Source: Malacoraja senta (taxonomy: Eukaryota). From it: DNA of 64,000 nucleotides. The position numbers and the translations under genes were made by a program. Shown here piece by piece: positions 1,239 to 21,749 of this stretch; positions within the stretch are counted from its first letter, which is position 1; each line of letters opens with the position of its first letter. The DNA lies in assembly GCA_038087875.1 (NCBI GenBank), contig CM075988.1, positions 20,524,001 to 20,588,000 on the forward strand, written 5' to 3'. The notes below the pieces were generated by a model. The model made no database searches and was not told where the DNA came from. It saw only the letters and a list, made by a program, of their open reading frames with translations.

Positions 1239-2115
1239 GTAATTAATTTGTAATTAATTTATTAGCCAAGTATGTAAACATACAAGGAATTTGATTTGCC
1301 AACAGTCATACAAAAAGCAACAAGATGTATAACCACATAAAAATTAAACATAGACTTAAACAGCCACCACAATGGCATGTGCGAATCCCCAGGGCGCACA
1401 GCATAAGCGGAGACCCACAGCCGTCAGTTCAATGTCCGAGCCACACAATCGCCCCTTCACCGTGATGTGACCAGAGTTGTACTGACCGCTGTCACTCTGC
1501 AGTCCCTGTCAGCCCAAACAGTCAGAAAGCCGTCCACACGCGCACTACACTCATGGAGATATGTCCCTGTAAAACACCGAGATCACTGCACTCACGGCAC
1601 TCCCTCCGAGTCCTCTCCAGTGCAGGCAGCACGTCCATCTTGTTTTTTCGGCGACCTCACATTCCCCACTGTGATGGAAGGCAAGTAACTTATACCTTCT
1701 TTCCCCCTTTTCTCCCGCAGTCGGGGCGGTCGAAACTTCCGCATTCTGGGATTGAATCTCCCGCAGTTGGCGATCGAAGCTCCTGCATCGGGGCGATAAA
1801 AGCTCCCGCGATCGGGGCGCTCGAAGTTCCTGCGGTTGGAGCTCCCGCAGTCGATCACTAACAAAAGGACCGCCTGCTCCACGATGTTAAAGCTGCAGTG
1901 CAGACGGACATACGATGGAAAAGTCGCACCTCCGTTGAGGAAAGAGATTAAAAAGATTTCCCCCAACCCCCCCTCCCCCACCTCCACCCCCACATAATAC
2001 AAAAACTAAAGGTACATTAAAAACATACAAGTAAACACAGACCAAAACAGCAAAAGAAGAAAAAGACGAGACAGGCTGTTGGCACGGCTGCCATGTACAG
2101 CGCCACCTAGCTGGC
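1239..2115 (-). mobile_element. Internally deleted (bipartite) non-autonomous Rex1-like retroelement: 5' UTR + APE N-terminus remnant + 3' tail
   Basis: Minus strand reads YLPSITVGNVRS..KMD, RECS, VDGFLTVWADRD and DIELTAVGLR (decayed Rex1 endonuclease start). It ends with 'caaattccttgtatgtttacatacttggctaataaa' plus a repeat tail. Flanked by CAATGA(A/G)TT at 1230-1238 and 2116-2124. Confidence 0.7.
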
Positions 2116-2270
2116 CAATGAGTTCATTGTTCCATTCCTAGTAGATAAGACAATTAAATAGTCCTGAATAAAATAAATTTCTAATCTGTAACCAGATATT
2201 ATTGAAGTTCTTGCTGCTGGTGATCACGACAGAGACATTAGTTCTATTGGAATCAGTATTCCAATGCTGA

Positions 2271-2560
2271 CACGGTGACACAGCAGTAGAGTTGCTGCCT
2301 TACAGCGCCAGAGACCCAGGTTCGATCCTGACTACGTGTGTTGTCTACACGGAGTTTCATTTTCTCCCTGTGACCAGGTAGGTTTTCTCCGGGTGATTGG
2401 GTTTCCTTTCAAACGTACAGGTTTGTAGGTTAATTGGCTTTGGTAAAATTGTTAAATTGTCCCAAGTGTGTGGGATACCATTAGTGTGTGGGTCGGCGCA
2501 GACTCGATGGGCCGATCGGCCTGTTTCATCACTGCACCACAAAGTCTAAAAATGTCTAAA
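2271..2560 (+). mobile_element. tRNA-derived V-SINE (HE1-like)
   Basis: tRNA-like head with B-box 'ggttcgatcc', V-domain 'ggagttt..ttctccctgtgacc..ggttttctccgggtg', and CR1-like tail 'gggccgatcggcctgtttc'. Confidence 0.85.
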
Positions 2561-3449
2561 AATAGTTCACAAATTCTAAAACAAAAAAGGCATATGAAAA
2601 GATTCCAAAATATAAGGCATATGAAAATATTTCCTCCACTCTTGAAACCCCTTGGCTTCAAAATCCCATGAAATCTCTCCCCATCAGCATTGAGCTGCCA
2701 TGATGGGCCGGTGTTTGTTATATGGAAAGTGGGGCTTTGAGCTTCCCAAATATCTGTGGACAGTTATGATTCATGAGAAAATAGTGGAAGACAATCCCCT
2801 TGGAGTTGTCTCTTTGCTAACAAGAAAAAGATTTCAGTTTAGTCCTGCAGTTGGTGTGAGGTCCAAATGCTATAAGGCAATGTCTTGGTGGAGGTTTCAA
2901 ACTCTCTGTTCCATTGCGATCCCTTGTCGGACCATCAGCCTAGCTTCCTAATCATATTACTGGAGGTGAGCCAACGCATGTTACAGTCACCTCTTTGGTT
3001 CAACATTATGGGCCACAGCACACGAGCAATGAAGAGTGACGAATTACTCCCTGTTGTCCGCGTTTGTTCCCATTCTCTTCCCATTCTCTTCCCACAATCC
3101 TTCCCATTGATTTATCGAGGGAAGCTGCGACATTCGCTAAAACAGACCAATTATGATGTTGAATGCAAGTGTTGTTTCGGGTTACGAGCGTTCTAAGTTG
3201 AAGAATAGATTTTGTTTTCTAATGCATTTTCAAAAAAGAACCTCCGGTCTCGAAGGAGAGCCAGCGATTAGAACGTGCTTTATTCAAATCAGATGTCTGA
3301 TTTTTAAACGCATTGTTTAGTGTTGGGAGGTTCAATTTGAGCACTGGAAGAAAATACCAAGAATGGAGTTATATTTGGAATCTTCCAAGCACAGGGGGGT
3401 GGGGGTTGAAACATACACAAGGGCCATCGAGAAGAGTCTGCAACAAAAA

Positions 3450-3655
3450 AACATAGTACAGGAGGAACCTAGTGGGTCAGGCAGCATCTGGGGATTGAAA
3501 TGGACTATGTTTCTTATCAGGAGCCTTCTTCAGATTGATTGTAATTAGTCTGAAGAAGGGTCCATACTCAAAATATCACGCATTCGTGTCCTCTTGACCC
3601 ACTGAGCTTCTCCAGCACTGTGTCTATTTTTGTAAACCATCATCTGCAGTCCCTT
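3450..3655. mobile_element. Degenerate palindromic PLE pseudo-LTR unit
   Basis: Inverted arms around 'cttcttcagattgattgtaattagtctgaagaaggg'. Same family as 43845-44063. Confidence 0.65.
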
Positions 3656-4934
3656 GTACCGCCATGAATACTGGATGGTGTTTATTCTAGACTATAATCA
3701 CCATGCTATGAGGAATCAGTCCCTTCCATCCATTCTAAGCTACTCATAACTTCATACTTCTCAATTAAATCTCCCATCTTCTGTACTGGCAGAAATGACA
3801 TTAAGCTACACTATCTCACTGTACAACTCCAGCCCAGGCCTTATCCTACCTTGCTCCTTCTGTAATGTGGTAAATAGAACAGTTCACAAGCGATAACCCA
3901 ACCAATCTCTCATACAATTCCAGCTCAACCTCTTTGTTTCTGTATTCTGGATCTTGGCTAATAAAGTTAACAATCTAATTTGTCTTTCTCAGCCATATTC
4001 ATTTCCTTTGGGATTTGTGGACATTATAGTTTCCAGCAACCGTATATGGTGCAAGCTATCCCATCTCTAGAAGGAAGCTGGCTGCTCCATTAATATTGAT
4101 GTTCATTGCCAATTTTCTCGCTGCAGAGCCTGTGAAAGGGGCAGAGATCCCGAGGACAACCCAAATCTTTAAAAGGAGCAGGTGAACCAGAGGATTGCCA
4201 CAGACCAGAAGGAGGGCTCAACTCCCCATTGTTCCTCCCATTCACTTTGGATCCACTGTTGCTGGGAATGGTGGGCCCTCTTGATGGTGTGCCTGTGTCT
4301 CTGAGGGTCACCAGATGCCAGGGATATGGAGACAAGACTGATCTATGGCCAGGAAGCCCAAAACCCCAGCAACAGAAACCCCAAGGATAGAACCATTCTT
4401 CAAGGTCTATGTTCTGAGCCTAAGCCGTAGACCACGATGTTGTTGAGGACAGGTCCATCTCGATAAGATGGGAACAGAGCTGATGGTGAAGGTCCCATCA
4501 ATGCATGACATGAGTACACGGTATTGGTAAGCACAATAGACACAAAAAGCTGGAGACAGGCAGCATCTCTGGAGAGAAGGAATGGGTGACGTTTTGGGTC
4601 GAGACCCTTCTCAAATGCTGAGTTACTCCAGCATTTTGTGTCTACCTTTGATTTAAACCAGCATCTGCAGTTCCTACACATTGTTAAGCACAAACCTGTC
4701 AATGTACAACACCAGGATATGGATGGAGGCAGGACTGTCTTAGTAAAATGTGTACAATGCTGGTGGGAAGAGATTGGTCAATGTGTAGATTGTTGTGCCC
4801 TACTGATGATGATGGTATGTCACTGTACAACAATGATGCACCAACTACCAGTTTCAAAAAGTCTGAAGAAGTGTCCCACCCCCAAACGTCACCTATCTTT
4901 TTTCTCCAGAGATGCTGCCTGATCTATTGATTTA

Positions 4935-5554
4935 CTCCAGCACTTTGTGTCTGTCTACCAATTTCAAAGGGCTCATTTCAGGTGCTGGTTCAGGTGTAAT
5001 ATGCTGTGCATCGGTGTGATTTATCATGATCTTTGTCCAGCTTACTGGAGAAAAGCATTGACCACAAACCAGAGGCACTGATAATGAATCATGATAAATT
5101 GGCCTCTGTAAATTGCTTTCCGTGTGTAGTGAGTTGATGTGCAAGGAGGATAACATATAATTAATGTGAAAACAGGTGATCGATGGTCAGCGTGGCCATG
5201 GGTGGGCTGAAGTTCCTGTTTCCATGCTTTATCTCTAAACTAAACTAAACACTCCCGGATAAATCAAACCCTGCAAAATACCATGGCTATTAATGGTGGA
5301 CAGGGAGGAAACGTGTGCTGCCTGCCTTTGGGGTGTGGGAAATGGTTGCCTTCTAAGAGCAAAGCATGAACATCCAACTTTAGAAAGAATTGATGTACAT
5401 TTTCCAAATGACTCAGAGAGTCGGTTTTAATGTTCATCTCTGAGAAAAACCTCCAGGGAGTCATCTGTTGAAAATGGGCAATAAATTCACTGTCGTACAA
5501 CGAGAGTTCCAGGAATAGGTCTGAGCCTGCCTGTCTCCCTGTTGATGAATAAGA
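4935..5554 (+). repeat. 620-bp direct duplication, copy 1
   Basis: Matches 8389-9008 (offset 3454). I could see only two substitutions. Confidence 0.95.
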
Positions 5555-5662
5555 CCTACATGTGATCTTCCTCGATCTGGCCAATGCATTTGGTTCAGTT
5601 CCCCATGAACTCCTTTGGGAAACTTTTGCCTTTTTCCATGTACCAGAGCTCATCACCACCTT

Positions 5663-6228
5663 TATCTTTAGAGTTTAGAGATAAAGCATGACATAGTTGT
5701 AGAATAAGAGGGGGCTCTTTTAAAACTGAGATGAGGAAGAACTTCTTCACCCAGAGGGTGGTTAATTTATGGAATTCACTGCCCCAGGGAGCAGTGGAAG
5801 CAGAAACATTAAATATATTTAAGTCTAAAATAGATGGTTTTTTAGCTGCCAAGGGGATAAGGGGCTACGGGGAGAGGGCAGGGATATGGACCTAGGTATG
5901 GTTAGTATAGTAAGACCTGAGTGATCTCCTGGACAAGTGTCGATCGCCTGGATTGGGGTCGGAGAGGAATTTCCCGGATTTTTTTCCCGAATTGGACCTG
6001 GGTTTTTATCCGTTTTTTTGCCTCCCCCAGGAGATCACGCGGTTCTTGGGGTGGAGAGGGGTGATAGCGATATAAAGGGGAGGGTAGTGTCTTGTGTTCT
6101 GTGTCTTGTGTCTACTGTTTGTGGGTAAGGGTGTCTGTTTAGTGTTCAGCCATGAGCGAATGGCGGTGCGGGCTCGATGGGCCTGGTGGTCTACTCTCGC
6201 ACCTACTTTCTATGTTTCTATGTTTCTA
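5663..6228 (+). mobile_element. CR1-like LINE 3' fragment nested in the HERO-like RT
   Basis: Encodes FKTEMRKNFFTQRVVNLWNSLP, has a long 3' UTR, and ends in a (TTTCTATG)n tail. Confidence 0.85.
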
Positions 6229-6242
6229 TTGGCACAAGGGAC

Positions 6243-8111
6243 CACACAGCTGACTTCAGTACAACATGGCAGCGCTTGGAAGTAGGCATCATGGCAGGCT
6301 GCACAGTCTCACCCTTGGCCTTTACAATGGCCATGGAAGTCATCATCAGGGCCTCAAAATGGGTGGTGGGCGGTGAACGAACCAGGACTGGGCTCCGTCT
6401 GCCACCCATCAGGGCATACATGGACGACATGACAACACTAACCACTACTGCAACATGCACCAAGCGGCTACTTGGAAAGCTGCAGGAGAACATCAAGTGG
6501 GCCCGAATGAAAATCAAACCAAGTAAATCTTGAAGCATCTCCATAGTCAAGGGGGTGCTTAGAGACACAAGGTTCTGTATCGGTGACGACCCAATACCAA
6601 CAGTGTCTGAGCAGCCAGTTAAAAGCCTGGGAAGATGGTATAACGCAAGTCTCAAGGACATAGAGCAGGTGCAACAACTAAGGCCAGAAATTGTCAATGG
6701 ACTGGAGAACATCAATCAGACCCAACTGCCTGGGAAACTGAAGCTCTGGTGCCTACAGTTTGGACTCCTTCCTCGGACAATGTGGCCACTGACCGTTTAT
6801 GAAGCCCCAATAACAACTGTGGAGAAGATGGAGCGAACCATAACTTCATACGTGAAGAAATGGCTCGGTGTCCCACGATGTCTAACTAACATCGGCGTCT
6901 ATGGCAAAGGGGTCCTGGAACTACCTCTCACTAGTCTAACAGAGGAATATAAGTGTTCTAAAGTAAGACTCCAGATGACACTGAGGGACTCTAGAGACAA
7001 GATCATCAGTGCTGTTGCGCCGCCCCTAGCAACTGGCCGGAAGTGGACACCATCTGATGCAGTACAGCAAGCTTCATCAGCCCTGAGGCACAAAGACATA
7101 GTGGGGCAAGTCCAGCAGGGAAGAGGAGGCTTTGGCCTTACGACAAGTAAACCAACTTGGCGAAAGGCCGCAACATCAGAGCGGAGGACGTTGGTGGTTG
7201 AGGAGGTGCGGCGACAGGAGGAGGCTGCAAGAAGTGCAAAGGCGGTCTCTCTTGCCAAGCAGGGGCAATGGATGCAGTGGGAAGGTGTGGAGCGGAGGAA
7301 GATCAGCTGGAAAGAACTATGGGAAATGGAAGCAAGCAAGATCAGCTTCATCATCAGAGCGACATATGACGTGCTTCCATCACCAAAGAACCTCCATCAG
7401 TGGTACGGCGAGGATCCAACCTGTGCCATCTGCCCAACTCCAGCGACCCTCAAACACATCATGGTAGGCTGCAAGACCAGCCTCACGCAAGGGAGATACA
7501 CGTGGCGGCATAATCAGGTACTAAAAAGCCTGGCATCAGCCCTTGAGAACAGGCGGTGTGCGACCAACTCCTTGCCTCCGAGAGCAAGCAACCCCCCTCC
7601 CCTAAGGGTAACAACCTTTGTCCGAGAAGGACAGAAAACTTCTAAACTTCCTTCCACCAGATCAGAAGAAGGAAGCCAATGCAGGGCCCGTGACTGGAGG
7701 ATGCTGGCGGACATCGGCCGACAACTAATTTTTCCACCTGAAATTGCTTCCACCAACCTCAGGCCAGACTTGATGTTCTGGTCCCCTTCACAGAAGACTG
7801 CTTACATCATAGAGCTCACAGTTCCATGGGAGAACTCTGTTGAGGAGGCCTATGAGCGTAAGAAGCTGCGCTACGCAGAGCTTGCAGCAGAGGCAACGCA
7901 GCGTGGCTGGAACACCAAAGTCTATCCAGTTGAAGTGGGATGCAGAGGATTTGTTGCGTCATCTACGATCAGACTGCTGAAGGAGCTTGGAATCCACGGT
8001 CAGGCTCTGCGGAAGACCATAAGATCACTCTCAGAGGCGGCTGAAAGAAGCAGCCGGTGGATTTGGCTCAAGCGGAAAGACCCATGCTGGGCCCCAAGTA
8101 TGTCGGGGTGA
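6243..8111 (+). pseudogene. RT C-terminal half + CCHC + restriction-like endonuclease ORF of the HERO-like element
   Basis: ORFs 6177-6533 and 6555-8111 are in the same frame, separated by one TGA at 6531-6533 (KPSKS*SISIVKG). This is consistent with a CGA>TGA CpG transition. Confidence 0.9.
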
Positions 8112-8170
8112 ATCTTTGGGACGGTTTGACACGGGACATGCGCTGAGGGTTGATCATCCTGCAGCGGGCC

Positions 8171-8247
8171 GCCCTTGTGGAGGGTGTATAGTGTTAAAAG
8201 GCCGAAACACCCAGTGATGCAAGGGTACACTACTGATGATGTGTCCT
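8171..8247 (+). ncRNA. Candidate strand-rearranged hammerhead ribozyme in the HERO-like 3' UTR
   Basis: Stem III GGGUGU 8182-8187/ACACCC 8207-8212. GUA cleavage triplet 8186-8188. Stem I UAGUGU 8189-8194/ACACUA 8227-8232. CUGAUGA 8233-8239 and GAAA 8204-8207. Extra helix 8171-8178/8219-8226. Stem II is imperfect. Confidence 0.7.
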
Positions 8248-8388
8248 GTGCCCAACTGTCCTGAAGGTTACCCCCCCCCCCCCGATGTTGAGCGTCTACC
8301 ACTCTCAACAATCAACGAATGTCGTGAAATGCTCCCCACCTATTGGCACAAGGGACTTCTTAACATCTTGTCCTGTGTATTTGATTCT

Positions 8389-9008
8389 CTCCAGCACTTT
8401 GTGTCTGTCTACCAATTTCAAAGGGCTCATTTCAGGTGCTGGTACAGGTGTAATATGCTGTGCATCGGTGTGATTTATCATGATCTTTGTCCAGCTTACT
8501 GGAGAAAAGCATTGACCACAAACCAGAGGCACTGATAATGAATCATGATAAATTGGCCTCTGTAAATTGCTTTCCGTGTGTAGTGAGTTGATGTGCAAGG
8601 AGGATAACATATAATTAATGTGAAAACAGGTGATCGATGGTCAGCGTGGCCACGGGTGGGCTGAAGTTCCTGTTTCCATGCTTTATCTCTAAACTAAACT
8701 AAACACTCCCGGATAAATCAAACCCTGCAAAATACCATGGCTATTAATGGTGGACAGGGAGGAAACGTGTGCTGCCTGCCTTTGGGGTGTGGGAAATGGT
8801 TGCCTTCTAAGAGCAAAGCATGAACATCCAACTTTAGAAAGAATTGATGTACATTTTCCAAATGACTCAGAGAGTCGGTTTTAATGTTCATCTCTGAGAA
8901 AAACCTCCAGGGAGTCATCTGTTGAAAATGGGCAATAAATTCACTGTCGTACAACGAGAGTTCCAGGAATAGGTCTGAGCCTGCCTGTCTCCCTGTTGAT
9001 GAATAAGA
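8389..9008 (+). repeat. 620-bp direct duplication, copy 2
   Basis: Matches 4935-5554. Confidence 0.95.
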
Positions 9009-21538: not shown

Positions 21539-21735
21539 CTTCTTCTTCTTCTTTTGTGTCCATCTTGTTACAAATGTTGACATCGCTATCATCGTCCGTC
21601 CTGAAAAGGACGCAAGCTTCCGGCGACAATCAGTGGGAGTCATCACTTGTTACAATAGATGATGGTGGTAGAAGAATTAGCTCAGGATACTTCCAGTTTC
21701 CAGCCCCGCGACGTGGACGCTTCTGCTATGGGGCC
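21539..21735 (-). mobile_element. 197-bp short non-autonomous retroelement (Ingi/Vingi-like, tentative) with a 5' HDV-like ribozyme
   Basis: 12-bp TSD ATACAGTTCAGT (21527-21538, 21736-21747). 3' end 'ggacacaaaa(gaa)n'. No ORF. Confidence 0.8.
21670..21735 (-). ncRNA. Candidate HDV-like self-cleaving ribozyme
   Basis: Minus-strand RNA: GGCCCC(P1) AU AGCAGAA(P2) GCG(P3) UCCACGU(L3) CGC(P3') GGGGCU(P1') GG(P1.1) AAACUGGAAGUAUCCUGAG(P4) CUAA(J4/2) UUCUUCU(P2'). G1.U wobble at the cleavage site. Confidence 0.8.
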
Positions 21736-21749
21736 ATACAGTTCAGTAC

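Follow-up and report, generated by a model that had tools for sequence, protein, structure and literature searches.

Can a vertebrate retrotransposon carry a hammerhead ribozyme whose conserved blocks follow one another in an order that is not a circular permutation of the familiar one? The question is raised by a 64,000-nucleotide stretch of the Malacoraja senta genome (GenBank assembly GCA_038087875.1, contig CM075988.1, positions 20,524,001 to 20,588,000 of the forward strand), referred to below as the window and numbered from its first letter. It contains a 5′-truncated copy of a long interspersed nuclear element (LINE) of the restriction-like endonuclease (RLE) type, and an earlier note made from the letters of the window had placed a rearranged hammerhead in the 3′ untranslated region (UTR) of this element. 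According to the analysis described here, the RNA encoded in this region is very probably a functional hammerhead-type ribozyme, as judged from the conservation of its core, its adherence to the NUH rule, covariation in five helices, and its likeness to RNAs that do cleave. On balance, we favor the reading that positions 8130-8250 specify a self-cleaving hammerhead of a new strand order that cuts transcripts of element arrays, or read-through transcripts, into units; the cutting role taken by itself is put forward tentatively, its chances standing at or just short of even.

The hammerhead motif and its layout

As read from the sequence and its covariation, the motif spans positions 8130-8250 (+), compared with 8171-8247 in the earlier note. 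The cleavage-site block (S) comes first, followed by the GAAA block (G) and then the CUGAUGA block (C), and the core is complete, comprising C3 to A9, the G10.1-C11.1 pair, G12 to A14, the A15.1-U16.1 pair, and H17. Direct reading of the letters confirmed the core elements, the 6-bp stems I and III, and the rearranged order that had been described. The motif begins with the 5′ strand of a helix termed P1 (8130-8140), which pairs with 8240-8250, followed by the hairpin Px (8141-8166), whose apical loop contains the palindrome UGAUCA at 8151-8156. The 10.x strand of stem II (8167-8170, with G10.1 at 8167) pairs with 8200-8203 and leads into the 5′ strand of an extra helix, P2 (8171-8178), which forms eight pairs, two of them G-U, with 8219-8226. 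After the non-bulged side of a kink-turn-like loop (8179-8181), the 16.x strand of stem III (8182-8187) forms six pairs with 8207-8212, including U8187-A8207 (= U16.1-A15.1). The GUA triplet occupies 8186-8188, A8188 being H17, and the cut is predicted between 8188 and 8189.

The second half of the motif opens with the 1.x strand of stem I (8189-8194; six pairs with 8227-8232) and a conserved A-rich linker from stem I to stem II (8195-8199), which reads UAAAA here and UUAAA in most relatives. Block G (8200-8212) consists of the 11.x strand of stem II (8200-8203), the GAAA of the core (G12, A13, A14, and A15.1; 8204-8207), and the 15.x strand of stem III (8207-8212), and is followed by the bulged side of the kink-turn-like loop (8213-8218) and the 3′ strand of P2 (8219-8226, pairing with 8171-8178). 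The 2.x strand of stem I and the CUGAUGA sequence together occupy 8227-8239 (2.x, 8227-8232; C3 to A9, 8233-8239), and the 3′ strand of P1 (8240-8250) adjoins A9 with a linker of 0 nt. The predicted cleavage-site nucleotide A8188 lies 77 nt past the end of the stop codon (8111), a placement in the 3′ UTR of an RLE-type LINE that agrees with the original description.

Conservation among relatives

The DNA of relatives comprised 81 loci, 79 from metagenomes and 2 from genome contigs, with a total of 285,251 bases and protein identities of 26-84%. A descriptor demanding CUGANGA, [G/A]AAA 13-45 nt upstream, and at least five of six pairs in stem I as well as in stem III gave a single match on both strands of the 64-kb window. 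On both strands of the 81 relatives' loci, it gave 46 matches, 45 of which were located on the coding strand 3′ of the open reading frame (ORF), whereas reversed sequences gave 0 matches and five shuffles gave 0, 0, 1, 1, and 0. The intact motif was present in 42 of the 56 relatives' loci having at least 150 nt past the stop codon, and the core is accordingly conserved well beyond the copy in the window. The distance from stop codon to predicted cut ranged from 29 to 723 nt with a median of 67 nt and was ≤200 nt in 38 of these 42 loci.

Alignments of the 3′ UTR to relatives, obtained with blastn and nhmmer, mainly covered 8130-8246, even at ~44-47% protein identity, and among relatives of 44-84% protein identity this was the best-conserved stretch of the 3′ UTR. 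CUGA-GA, A13-A15.1, and U16.1 were invariant among the 42 sequences, as the descriptor had demanded. Position 17, which the descriptor left free, was A in 17 sequences, U in 14, C in 10, and G in only 1, and this near-complete avoidance of G means that the NUH rule is followed. A chance resemblance to hammerheads is excluded.

Helices and covariation

Covariation was counted in a MAFFT alignment of the 42 distinct sequences for the four core-adjacent helices. Standard pairs filled 88.4% of the cells, compared with 65.3% in shuffled alignments (reached by 0 of 500) and 36-46% when partners were slid by 1-3 columns. There were 230 cells with changes on both sides versus 65.8 expected, a value likewise reached by 0 of 500 shuffles, and both-side changes occurred in 20 of the 22 pairs. 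Stem I showed them in all 5 pairs, with 97% of its cells paired, and stem III in 5 of 6 pairs, the sixth, U16.1-A15.1, being invariant (42/42); the paired percentages of these two stems are biased upward because both were used in sequence selection, whereas stem II, P2, and P1 were not. In P2, the extra helix 8171-8178/8219-8226 already pointed out in the earlier note, all 7 pairs counted of the 8 in the window had changed on both sides.

The stem II of that note, formed by 8241-8247 with 8199-8203, fared differently: relatives showed no matching complementarity, and both strands have other covarying partners. While stems I and III passed the covariation check, this helix is replaced by 8167-8170/8200-8203, in which 3 of 4 pairs changed on both sides. 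Its pair 10.1-11.1, next to G12, is G-C in 33 and G-U in 3 of the 42 sequences, matching the canonical G10.1-C11.1, and its spellings include GCUCC/GGAGC (L053), GACCCC/GGGGUC (L065), GGGGC/GCCCC (L094), and GCCC/GGGC (L050). In a swap control, strands from the same sequence gave higher pairing scores than strands from unrelated sequences for stem II (4.71 versus 3.65 of 5), P2 (6.09 versus 4.91 of 7), and P1 (7.34 versus 5.81 of 8).

P1 comprises 11 pairs in the window, 3 of them G-U (8130-8140/8240-8250), 11 pairs in L046 and L053, 14 in L058, and 15 in L064, with sequences that are unrelated to one another; its score was at least 7 in 35 of 44 sequences. Unguided RNAalifold with 28 sequences predicted P1 with 9 pairs, each of which had changed on both sides in 8-13 sequences. 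An unguided minimum-free-energy fold of 8128-8252 gave P1, Px, P2, and stem III at -48.6 kcal/mol (z = -2.33; 2 of 200 shuffles were as good). The slot of Px is filled by a 15-27-nt hairpin in most relatives. A strand 3′ of CUGANGA complementary to the strand before GAAA was found in no relative, and in the window the first letter past A9 is a U that would face C11.1.

Junction geometry and topology

Four linkers in the window have a length of zero nucleotides (8140/8141, 8166/8167, C8203/G8204, and A8239/U8240). From these connections, a four-way junction without linkers, made up of P1, Px, stem II, and the core stack, is predicted between A9 and G10.1; it may stack in the manner of a Holliday junction. 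P2 joins the far ends of stems I and II without a linker and the far end of stem III via 3 and 6 nt; with such attachments, the helices could coexist only if P2 folds back along the stack of stems II and III. In a kink-turn, a canonical stem is followed by a bulge of 3 nt, tandem sheared G-A/A-G pairs, and a non-canonical stem. This sequence pattern is found where stem III, in the place of the canonical stem, meets P2, with an AGU bulge (A8213-U8215), G8216 opposite A8181, A8217 opposite G8180, and U8218 next in the strand. Most relatives are alike in this respect; in L059, L080, L092, L094, L099, L100, and L107, a plain 3-5-nt bulge takes the place of the kink-turn-like loop.

Rfam 15 yielded no hammerhead match, neither in the whole window at gathering scores, nor in 7900-8600 at E ≤ 10, nor in the full unit plus junction at E ≤ 5, in line with the expectation that standard hammerhead models would miss the motif. 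The same searches gave no HDV-like (hepatitis delta virus-like) ribozyme in the element. A C/D-box RNA was considered and rejected: sR52 scored 17.7 bits (E = 0.36) against a gathering score of 50, and the weak sR52/sR53 matches (16-18 bits), overlapping the bulged side of the kink-turn-like loop, are explained by this GA/GA loop together with CUGA.

Rearranged hammerheads are indeed already in print, as the earlier note had stated. Non-circularly permuted hammerheads were first described in 2023 from viroid-like environmental RNAs, and for S-G-C hammerheads cleavage in vitro at the analogous site was demonstrated, backed by mutants that disrupt the helices and mutants that compensate (Eckert, Friedrich, Weinberg & Weinberg, NAR 2023; PMC10085705). 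In this type SGC, stem I leads into stem II via a short linker, and the strand 5′ of stem I 2.x pairs with the strand 3′ of 10.x to give a fourth helix. In its published alignment, at most one nucleotide separates A9 from the 10.x strand, and the scheme of the paper treats the stretch from the stem I strand through CUGANGA to the stem II strand as an uninterruptible block, which leaves six possible orders (PMC10085705). The sequences were found on viroid-like metatranscriptome contigs and in other environmental data; retrotransposons appear in the paper only in reference lists (PMC10085705).

The skate motif shares with type SGC the S-G-C order, two pseudoknots in the core, and an A/U-rich linker leading from stem I to the strand of stem II that precedes GAAA. 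In the relatives, 6-13 nt separate the stem I strand from GAAA, 4-6 of these nucleotides belonging to the stem II strand. P2 has exactly the neighbors of the fourth helix, and the short connection between this helix and the far end of stem III is equally puzzling in both RNAs. In contrast, the backbone here does not run on continuously from A9 into stem II, as it does in the hammerhead class, and stem II is not built from the strand directly 3′ of CUGANGA as in type SGC. Instead, A9 enters the 11-bp P1, and the 10.x strand lies ~70 nt upstream, behind P1 and Px. Both P2 strands are joined to stem III, giving a closed ring, and the ends of the RNA are at P1. By its strand order, the RNA amounts to a circularly permuted type SGC with its ends inside block C and stands outside the six orders; judged on the predicted helices, it is a hammerhead topology not previously described. 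The literature searched, which did not extend to subscription journals and Repbase Reports, described neither this topology nor any hammerhead in RLE or HERO LINEs.

The host element

The element copy in the window (5552-8388, +) is 5′-truncated; 5552-5659 and 6243-8388 are collinear with a full unit and are separated by an insertion at ~5660-6242. The 3′ part of its ORF (6534-8111, +; stop codon 8109-8111) encodes the end of the reverse transcriptase (RT), a linker, a CCHC-like zinc knuckle, and an RLE-like domain, the zinc-knuckle and RLE-like motifs being assigned by eye; a Pfam search of the C-terminal 518 amino acids matched no family. A full unit from the same genome (locus L034) has a length of 3954 bp and consists of a 131-nt 5′ UTR, one ORF of 1179 amino acids, in which an RVT_1 domain was found, and a 283-nt 3′ UTR. 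Downstream of the motif, the 3′ tail of the element (8251-8388, +) contains a run of C residues (8265-8277) and a hairpin (~8280-8310) and terminates in ...CUGUGUAUUUGAUUCU. The length of the C-run varies among copies, as seen in 230-233-base matches to a 231-base query and in a one-base deletion in reads.

The family is abundant, with 1014 first-look candidates in the genome for the query 8100-8330, and all 40 scored copies were 99-100% identical to this query; the LINE family is young. The 3′ ends of all 30 sampled copies fell at window positions 8386-8392, mostly at 8388, and the 5′ ends were scattered, as expected under target-primed reverse transcription. The 3′ flanks of the copies were mutually unrelated. 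According to a passage of PMC4640811, the HERO clade is mostly non-specific in insertion. The diverse 3′ flanks fit this description; HERO is used here as a candidate label only, the relatives being named "R2" or "reverse transcriptase". Protein relatives were found in many teleosts, sturgeon, Branchiostoma, bivalves, and sea urchin (530 at E ≤ 0.001 among 8000 candidates scored). A protein search for divergent families in the same genome found none, matches ~50% and ~70% identical to two queries being the same young element. With only one young family in this genome, the data on covariation were taken from metagenome contigs.

Two further features of the locus were observed. At 5660-6242, ~580 bp stand where other copies have ~40 bp; this segment, parts of which resemble short repeats at other places in the window, probably represents a nested insertion. 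A direct repeat of 637 bp (4918-5554 and 8372-9008, 98.9% identical) flanks the truncated copy and overlaps the last 17 bases of the element, and could represent either a very long target duplication or an insertion into one of two duplicated segments.

Tandem arrays and proposed cleavage

Elements of this family often stand head to tail with a spacing of 3954 nt. Of 20 copies sampled for a full-length ORF, 18 had a complete 5′ end, and all 18 were seamlessly preceded by the 3′ end of another copy. These upstream partial copies started at unit positions 3636, 3759, 3447, 2888, 3329, 3174, 3200, 3585, 3660, and 3790, the 8 others extending beyond 1200 nt, and 16 of the 18 contained the whole ribozyme. 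The two remaining copies, slightly 5′-truncated at positions 88 and 122, had no upstream copy. A new unit followed 9 of the 30 sampled 3′ ends. The seamless upstream copies mean that the retrotransposed RNAs spanned more than one unit and that the junction was templated. Tandems were also present in the loci of 9 relatives overall: the next ORF begins ~260-390 nt past the ribozyme in L046, L050, L058, L061, L065, L080, L090, and L104, and L064 contains two ribozymes 3733 nt apart.

A search with Rfam gave no second ribozyme at the unit junction to which the exact 3′ end might be due. The 5′ UTR (L034 4023-4153) is a conserved row of small hairpins, four to six in number, with loops of the GAAAGA type and UGAC(A)AC-like spacers; it had no Rfam match and is alignable at ~45% protein identity with L046, L047, L050, L051, L058, L061, L062, L065, L080, L090, L104, and L111.

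In the reading that we favor, the backbone would be cleaved between A8188 and U8189, by analogy with other hammerheads, to yield a 2′,3′-cyclic phosphate and a 5′-OH, with P1 bridging the backbone opening between A9 and G10.1. Located ~260-390 nt upstream of the next ORF in head-to-tail arrays, the ribozyme would convert multi-unit or read-through transcripts into unit-length RNAs. The products of the cut would be held by ~29 bp (P1, II, P2, and III), so that cleavage is probably reversible or may be followed by ligation or circularization, for which a host ligase is plausible. A reversible or rejoined cut would fit with the cDNA copies extending across the site, and templates that were circular or multimeric would account for the arrays as well. 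In 16 of the 42 relatives, the cut lies 29-41 nt past the stop codon, and there the 5′ strand of P1 and half of Px are coding; a terminating ribosome would have to melt them, which suggests a possible link between translation and cutting.

Several observations speak against this reading. The predicted cut corresponds to unit position 3754/3755, and none of the 30 sampled 3′ copies started at 3755. Their truncation points were 3660, 2824, 3658, 2879, 3329, 3831, 3591, 3831, 3510, 3302, and 3794, the rest of the copies being longer. Among the 18 upstream partial copies, 1 started near the cut (3759), 16 read through it, and 1 started downstream at 3790. As the copies run through the cut site, the RNAs that were retrotransposed must either have escaped cutting at the hammerhead or have been rejoined there. 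Cleavage at 8188 would part the ORF from the last 200 nt, which are kept in every copy. The RNA data mapped on L034:3500-7400 consisted of two oligo-dT RNA-seq runs, a single-cell run, and a set of contigs; the depth was low (in the bulk data ~2-17 for each bin and strand class, in both orientations), and most reads were 95-99% alike. No pile-up of read starts or ends was listed at the site (L034 3822/3823), the depth being too thin to decide, and the depth across it (~4-5 per strand class) was like that of neighboring bins, with one X1 contig bridging the site. Processing of the ends of element RNAs, proposed in the earlier note, thus found no direct support in either the copies or the reads. 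The motif is also not universal: 14 of the 56 relatives' loci lacked it in intact form. By eye, a recognizable motif with a mutated CUGANGA was seen in L041, L043, L069, and L109 and one with a weaker stem I in L075 and L079, nothing recognizable being left in the remaining 8; the two distant relatives from genome contigs were both without the motif. Finally, the opening between A9 and G10.1 contradicts the assumption of an unbroken block in PMC10085705.

Five RNA reads (runs X23 and X24) join L034 5812 to 3861, i.e. unit position 1790 to 3793. They suggest an internally deleted derivative without the C-terminal half of the RT, the endonuclease region, and the part of the ribozyme containing the cleavage site.

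Alternative explanations

A more far-reaching proposal, which we regard as unlikely but not as idle, takes the RNA as a seventh hammerhead topology, with its core opened between A9 and G10.1 and kept closed by the four-way junction and by a ring of helices that the kink-turn completes, that would serve an ancient LINE clade as a reversible nick-and-reseal or circularizing device. This clade would be that of fishes, lancelets, molluscs, and echinoderms, and its unit-length, possibly circular RNAs would be copied round and round; such rolling copying of RNAs cut from arrays would explain why a part-copy stands before every complete copy. Possible extensions of this proposal are that the palindrome of Px pairs two element RNAs and that the overlap of P1 and Px with the final codons of the ORF, seen in many relatives, couples cutting to translation.

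Somewhat less probable again is a structured 3′ UTR element that resembles a hammerhead without cutting and serves RT binding or positioning, or as a site for a K-turn-binding protein. The motif does lie in the 3′ UTR, where the proteins of RLE LINEs bind RNA, as established for R2, and a kink-turn-like loop is a typical protein-binding site. The read-through of the site by genomic copies and the RNA reads without ends there would follow naturally from such a role, and the abstract of PMC12222951 mentions a pseudoknotted RNA. However, binding alone leaves unexplained why 13 core positions are kept, why H17 is other than G in 41 of 42 sequences, and why G10.1-C11.1 and U16.1-A15.1 are retained, and the helices match those of the cleaving type-SGC RNAs of PMC10085705. 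Binding and cutting are not mutually exclusive roles.

The ribozyme might also be active only as a dimer or in trans, with two RNAs kissing via the palindrome of Px, a possibility that we rate slightly lower still. The hammerheads of Penelope-like elements reportedly cleave as dimers, a finding said to be that of Lunse in 2017. In 23 of the 42 sequences, the Px loop contains a 6-nt palindrome in one of six spellings (UGAUCA, UGGCCA, UGUACA, UCAUGA, GACGUC, and CCUAGG), which suggests loop-loop pairing of two element RNAs. Yet 19 of 42 Px hairpins have no palindrome, and a 6-nt palindrome also turns up somewhere in about one-third of shuffled Px sequences, which makes the excess moderate. All helices have partners in cis and are connected by zero-length linkers, which makes the monomer complete. 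Of the two descriptions that the earlier note had offered, a pseudoknotted hammerhead or one acting in trans or as a dimer, the first is retained and the second is disfavored, no dimer being needed to supply stem II. Last and practically negligible is the idea of a resemblance by chance or of a C/D-box small RNA, for which very many windows scanned at the first stage and the weak sR52 match might be cited, but which is opposed by the 46 descriptor matches versus 0-1 in controls, conservation at 44-84% protein identity, strong covariation, and an sR52 score far under the gathering score of 50. The self-cleaving hammerhead of new strand order that cuts array or read-through transcripts into units remains the reading we prefer.

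A probable HDV-like ribozyme elsewhere in the window

A second ribozyme match was observed at 21670-21747 (-), where the Rfam model of the CPEB3 ribozyme, an HDV-like ribozyme, reached 40.3 bits (E = 2.6e-07; gathering score, 35). The matching segment forms the 5′ end of an unrelated, highly repeated element with 1908 first-look candidates. In the 39 other CPEB3-like copies scored on the plus strand of the query, the first base falls within query positions 43-57, on the predicted cut or only a few bases away from it, the pattern to be expected when a retroelement has a 5′ HDV-like ribozyme. Descriptions of the CPEB3 family call it mammalian; the present genome contains an active fish-type LINE.

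Comparison with known systems

If the proposed ribozyme is real, rewired hammerheads occur not only in viroid-like environmental RNAs but also in animal genomes, within an autonomous and widespread LINE clade. The hammerhead core would then tolerate an opening of the backbone between A9 and G10.1, and searches that assume unbreakable blocks may miss many ribozymes. The element would be the third retroelement lineage, after Penelope-like elements and retrozymes, to pair a tandem arrangement with a hammerhead, and the role of hammerheads in retrotransposition would become testable in a young, highly repeated vertebrate family. The predicted fold, with a four-way junction, a kink-turn, and two pseudoknots in ~120 nt, would be of interest for RNA structure and RNA engineering.

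With the hammerheads of types I, II, and III (RF00163, RF02276, and RF00008), the motif shares the 13-nucleotide core, the NUH rule, stems I-III, and the closing pair G10.1-C11.1. It differs from them in a strand order that is not a circular permutation of theirs and in having no pseudoknot-free three-way junction.

R2 and other elements with 5′ HDV-like ribozymes offer a second comparison. In both cases a self-cleaving ribozyme, here a predicted one, belongs to an RLE LINE, is probably co-transcribed with it, and in arrays lies upstream of the ORF that it would release. The ribozyme classes differ, and so do their locations, the hammerhead being in the 3′ UTR and the HDV-like ribozymes at the 5′ end. 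The DNA copies of HDV-type elements begin at the cut, as those of the CPEB3-like repeat in the window do, whereas the copies of the present element do not.

The closest parallels among hammerhead-bearing retroelements are Penelope-like elements and retrozymes, as far as the accessible parts of the literature on them show. There, too, a full copy stands behind a partial upstream copy or in tandem arrays, and the ribozyme lies upstream of the next unit. Cutting of multimers has been proposed for them, and circular RNA is found in retrozymes. Their hammerheads, which in Penelope-like elements lie in pseudo-LTRs, are of type I or III, often minimal and dimeric, and the elements rely on GIY-YIG or long terminal repeat machinery or are non-autonomous, whereas here an autonomous RLE LINE would carry a hammerhead of a new topology.

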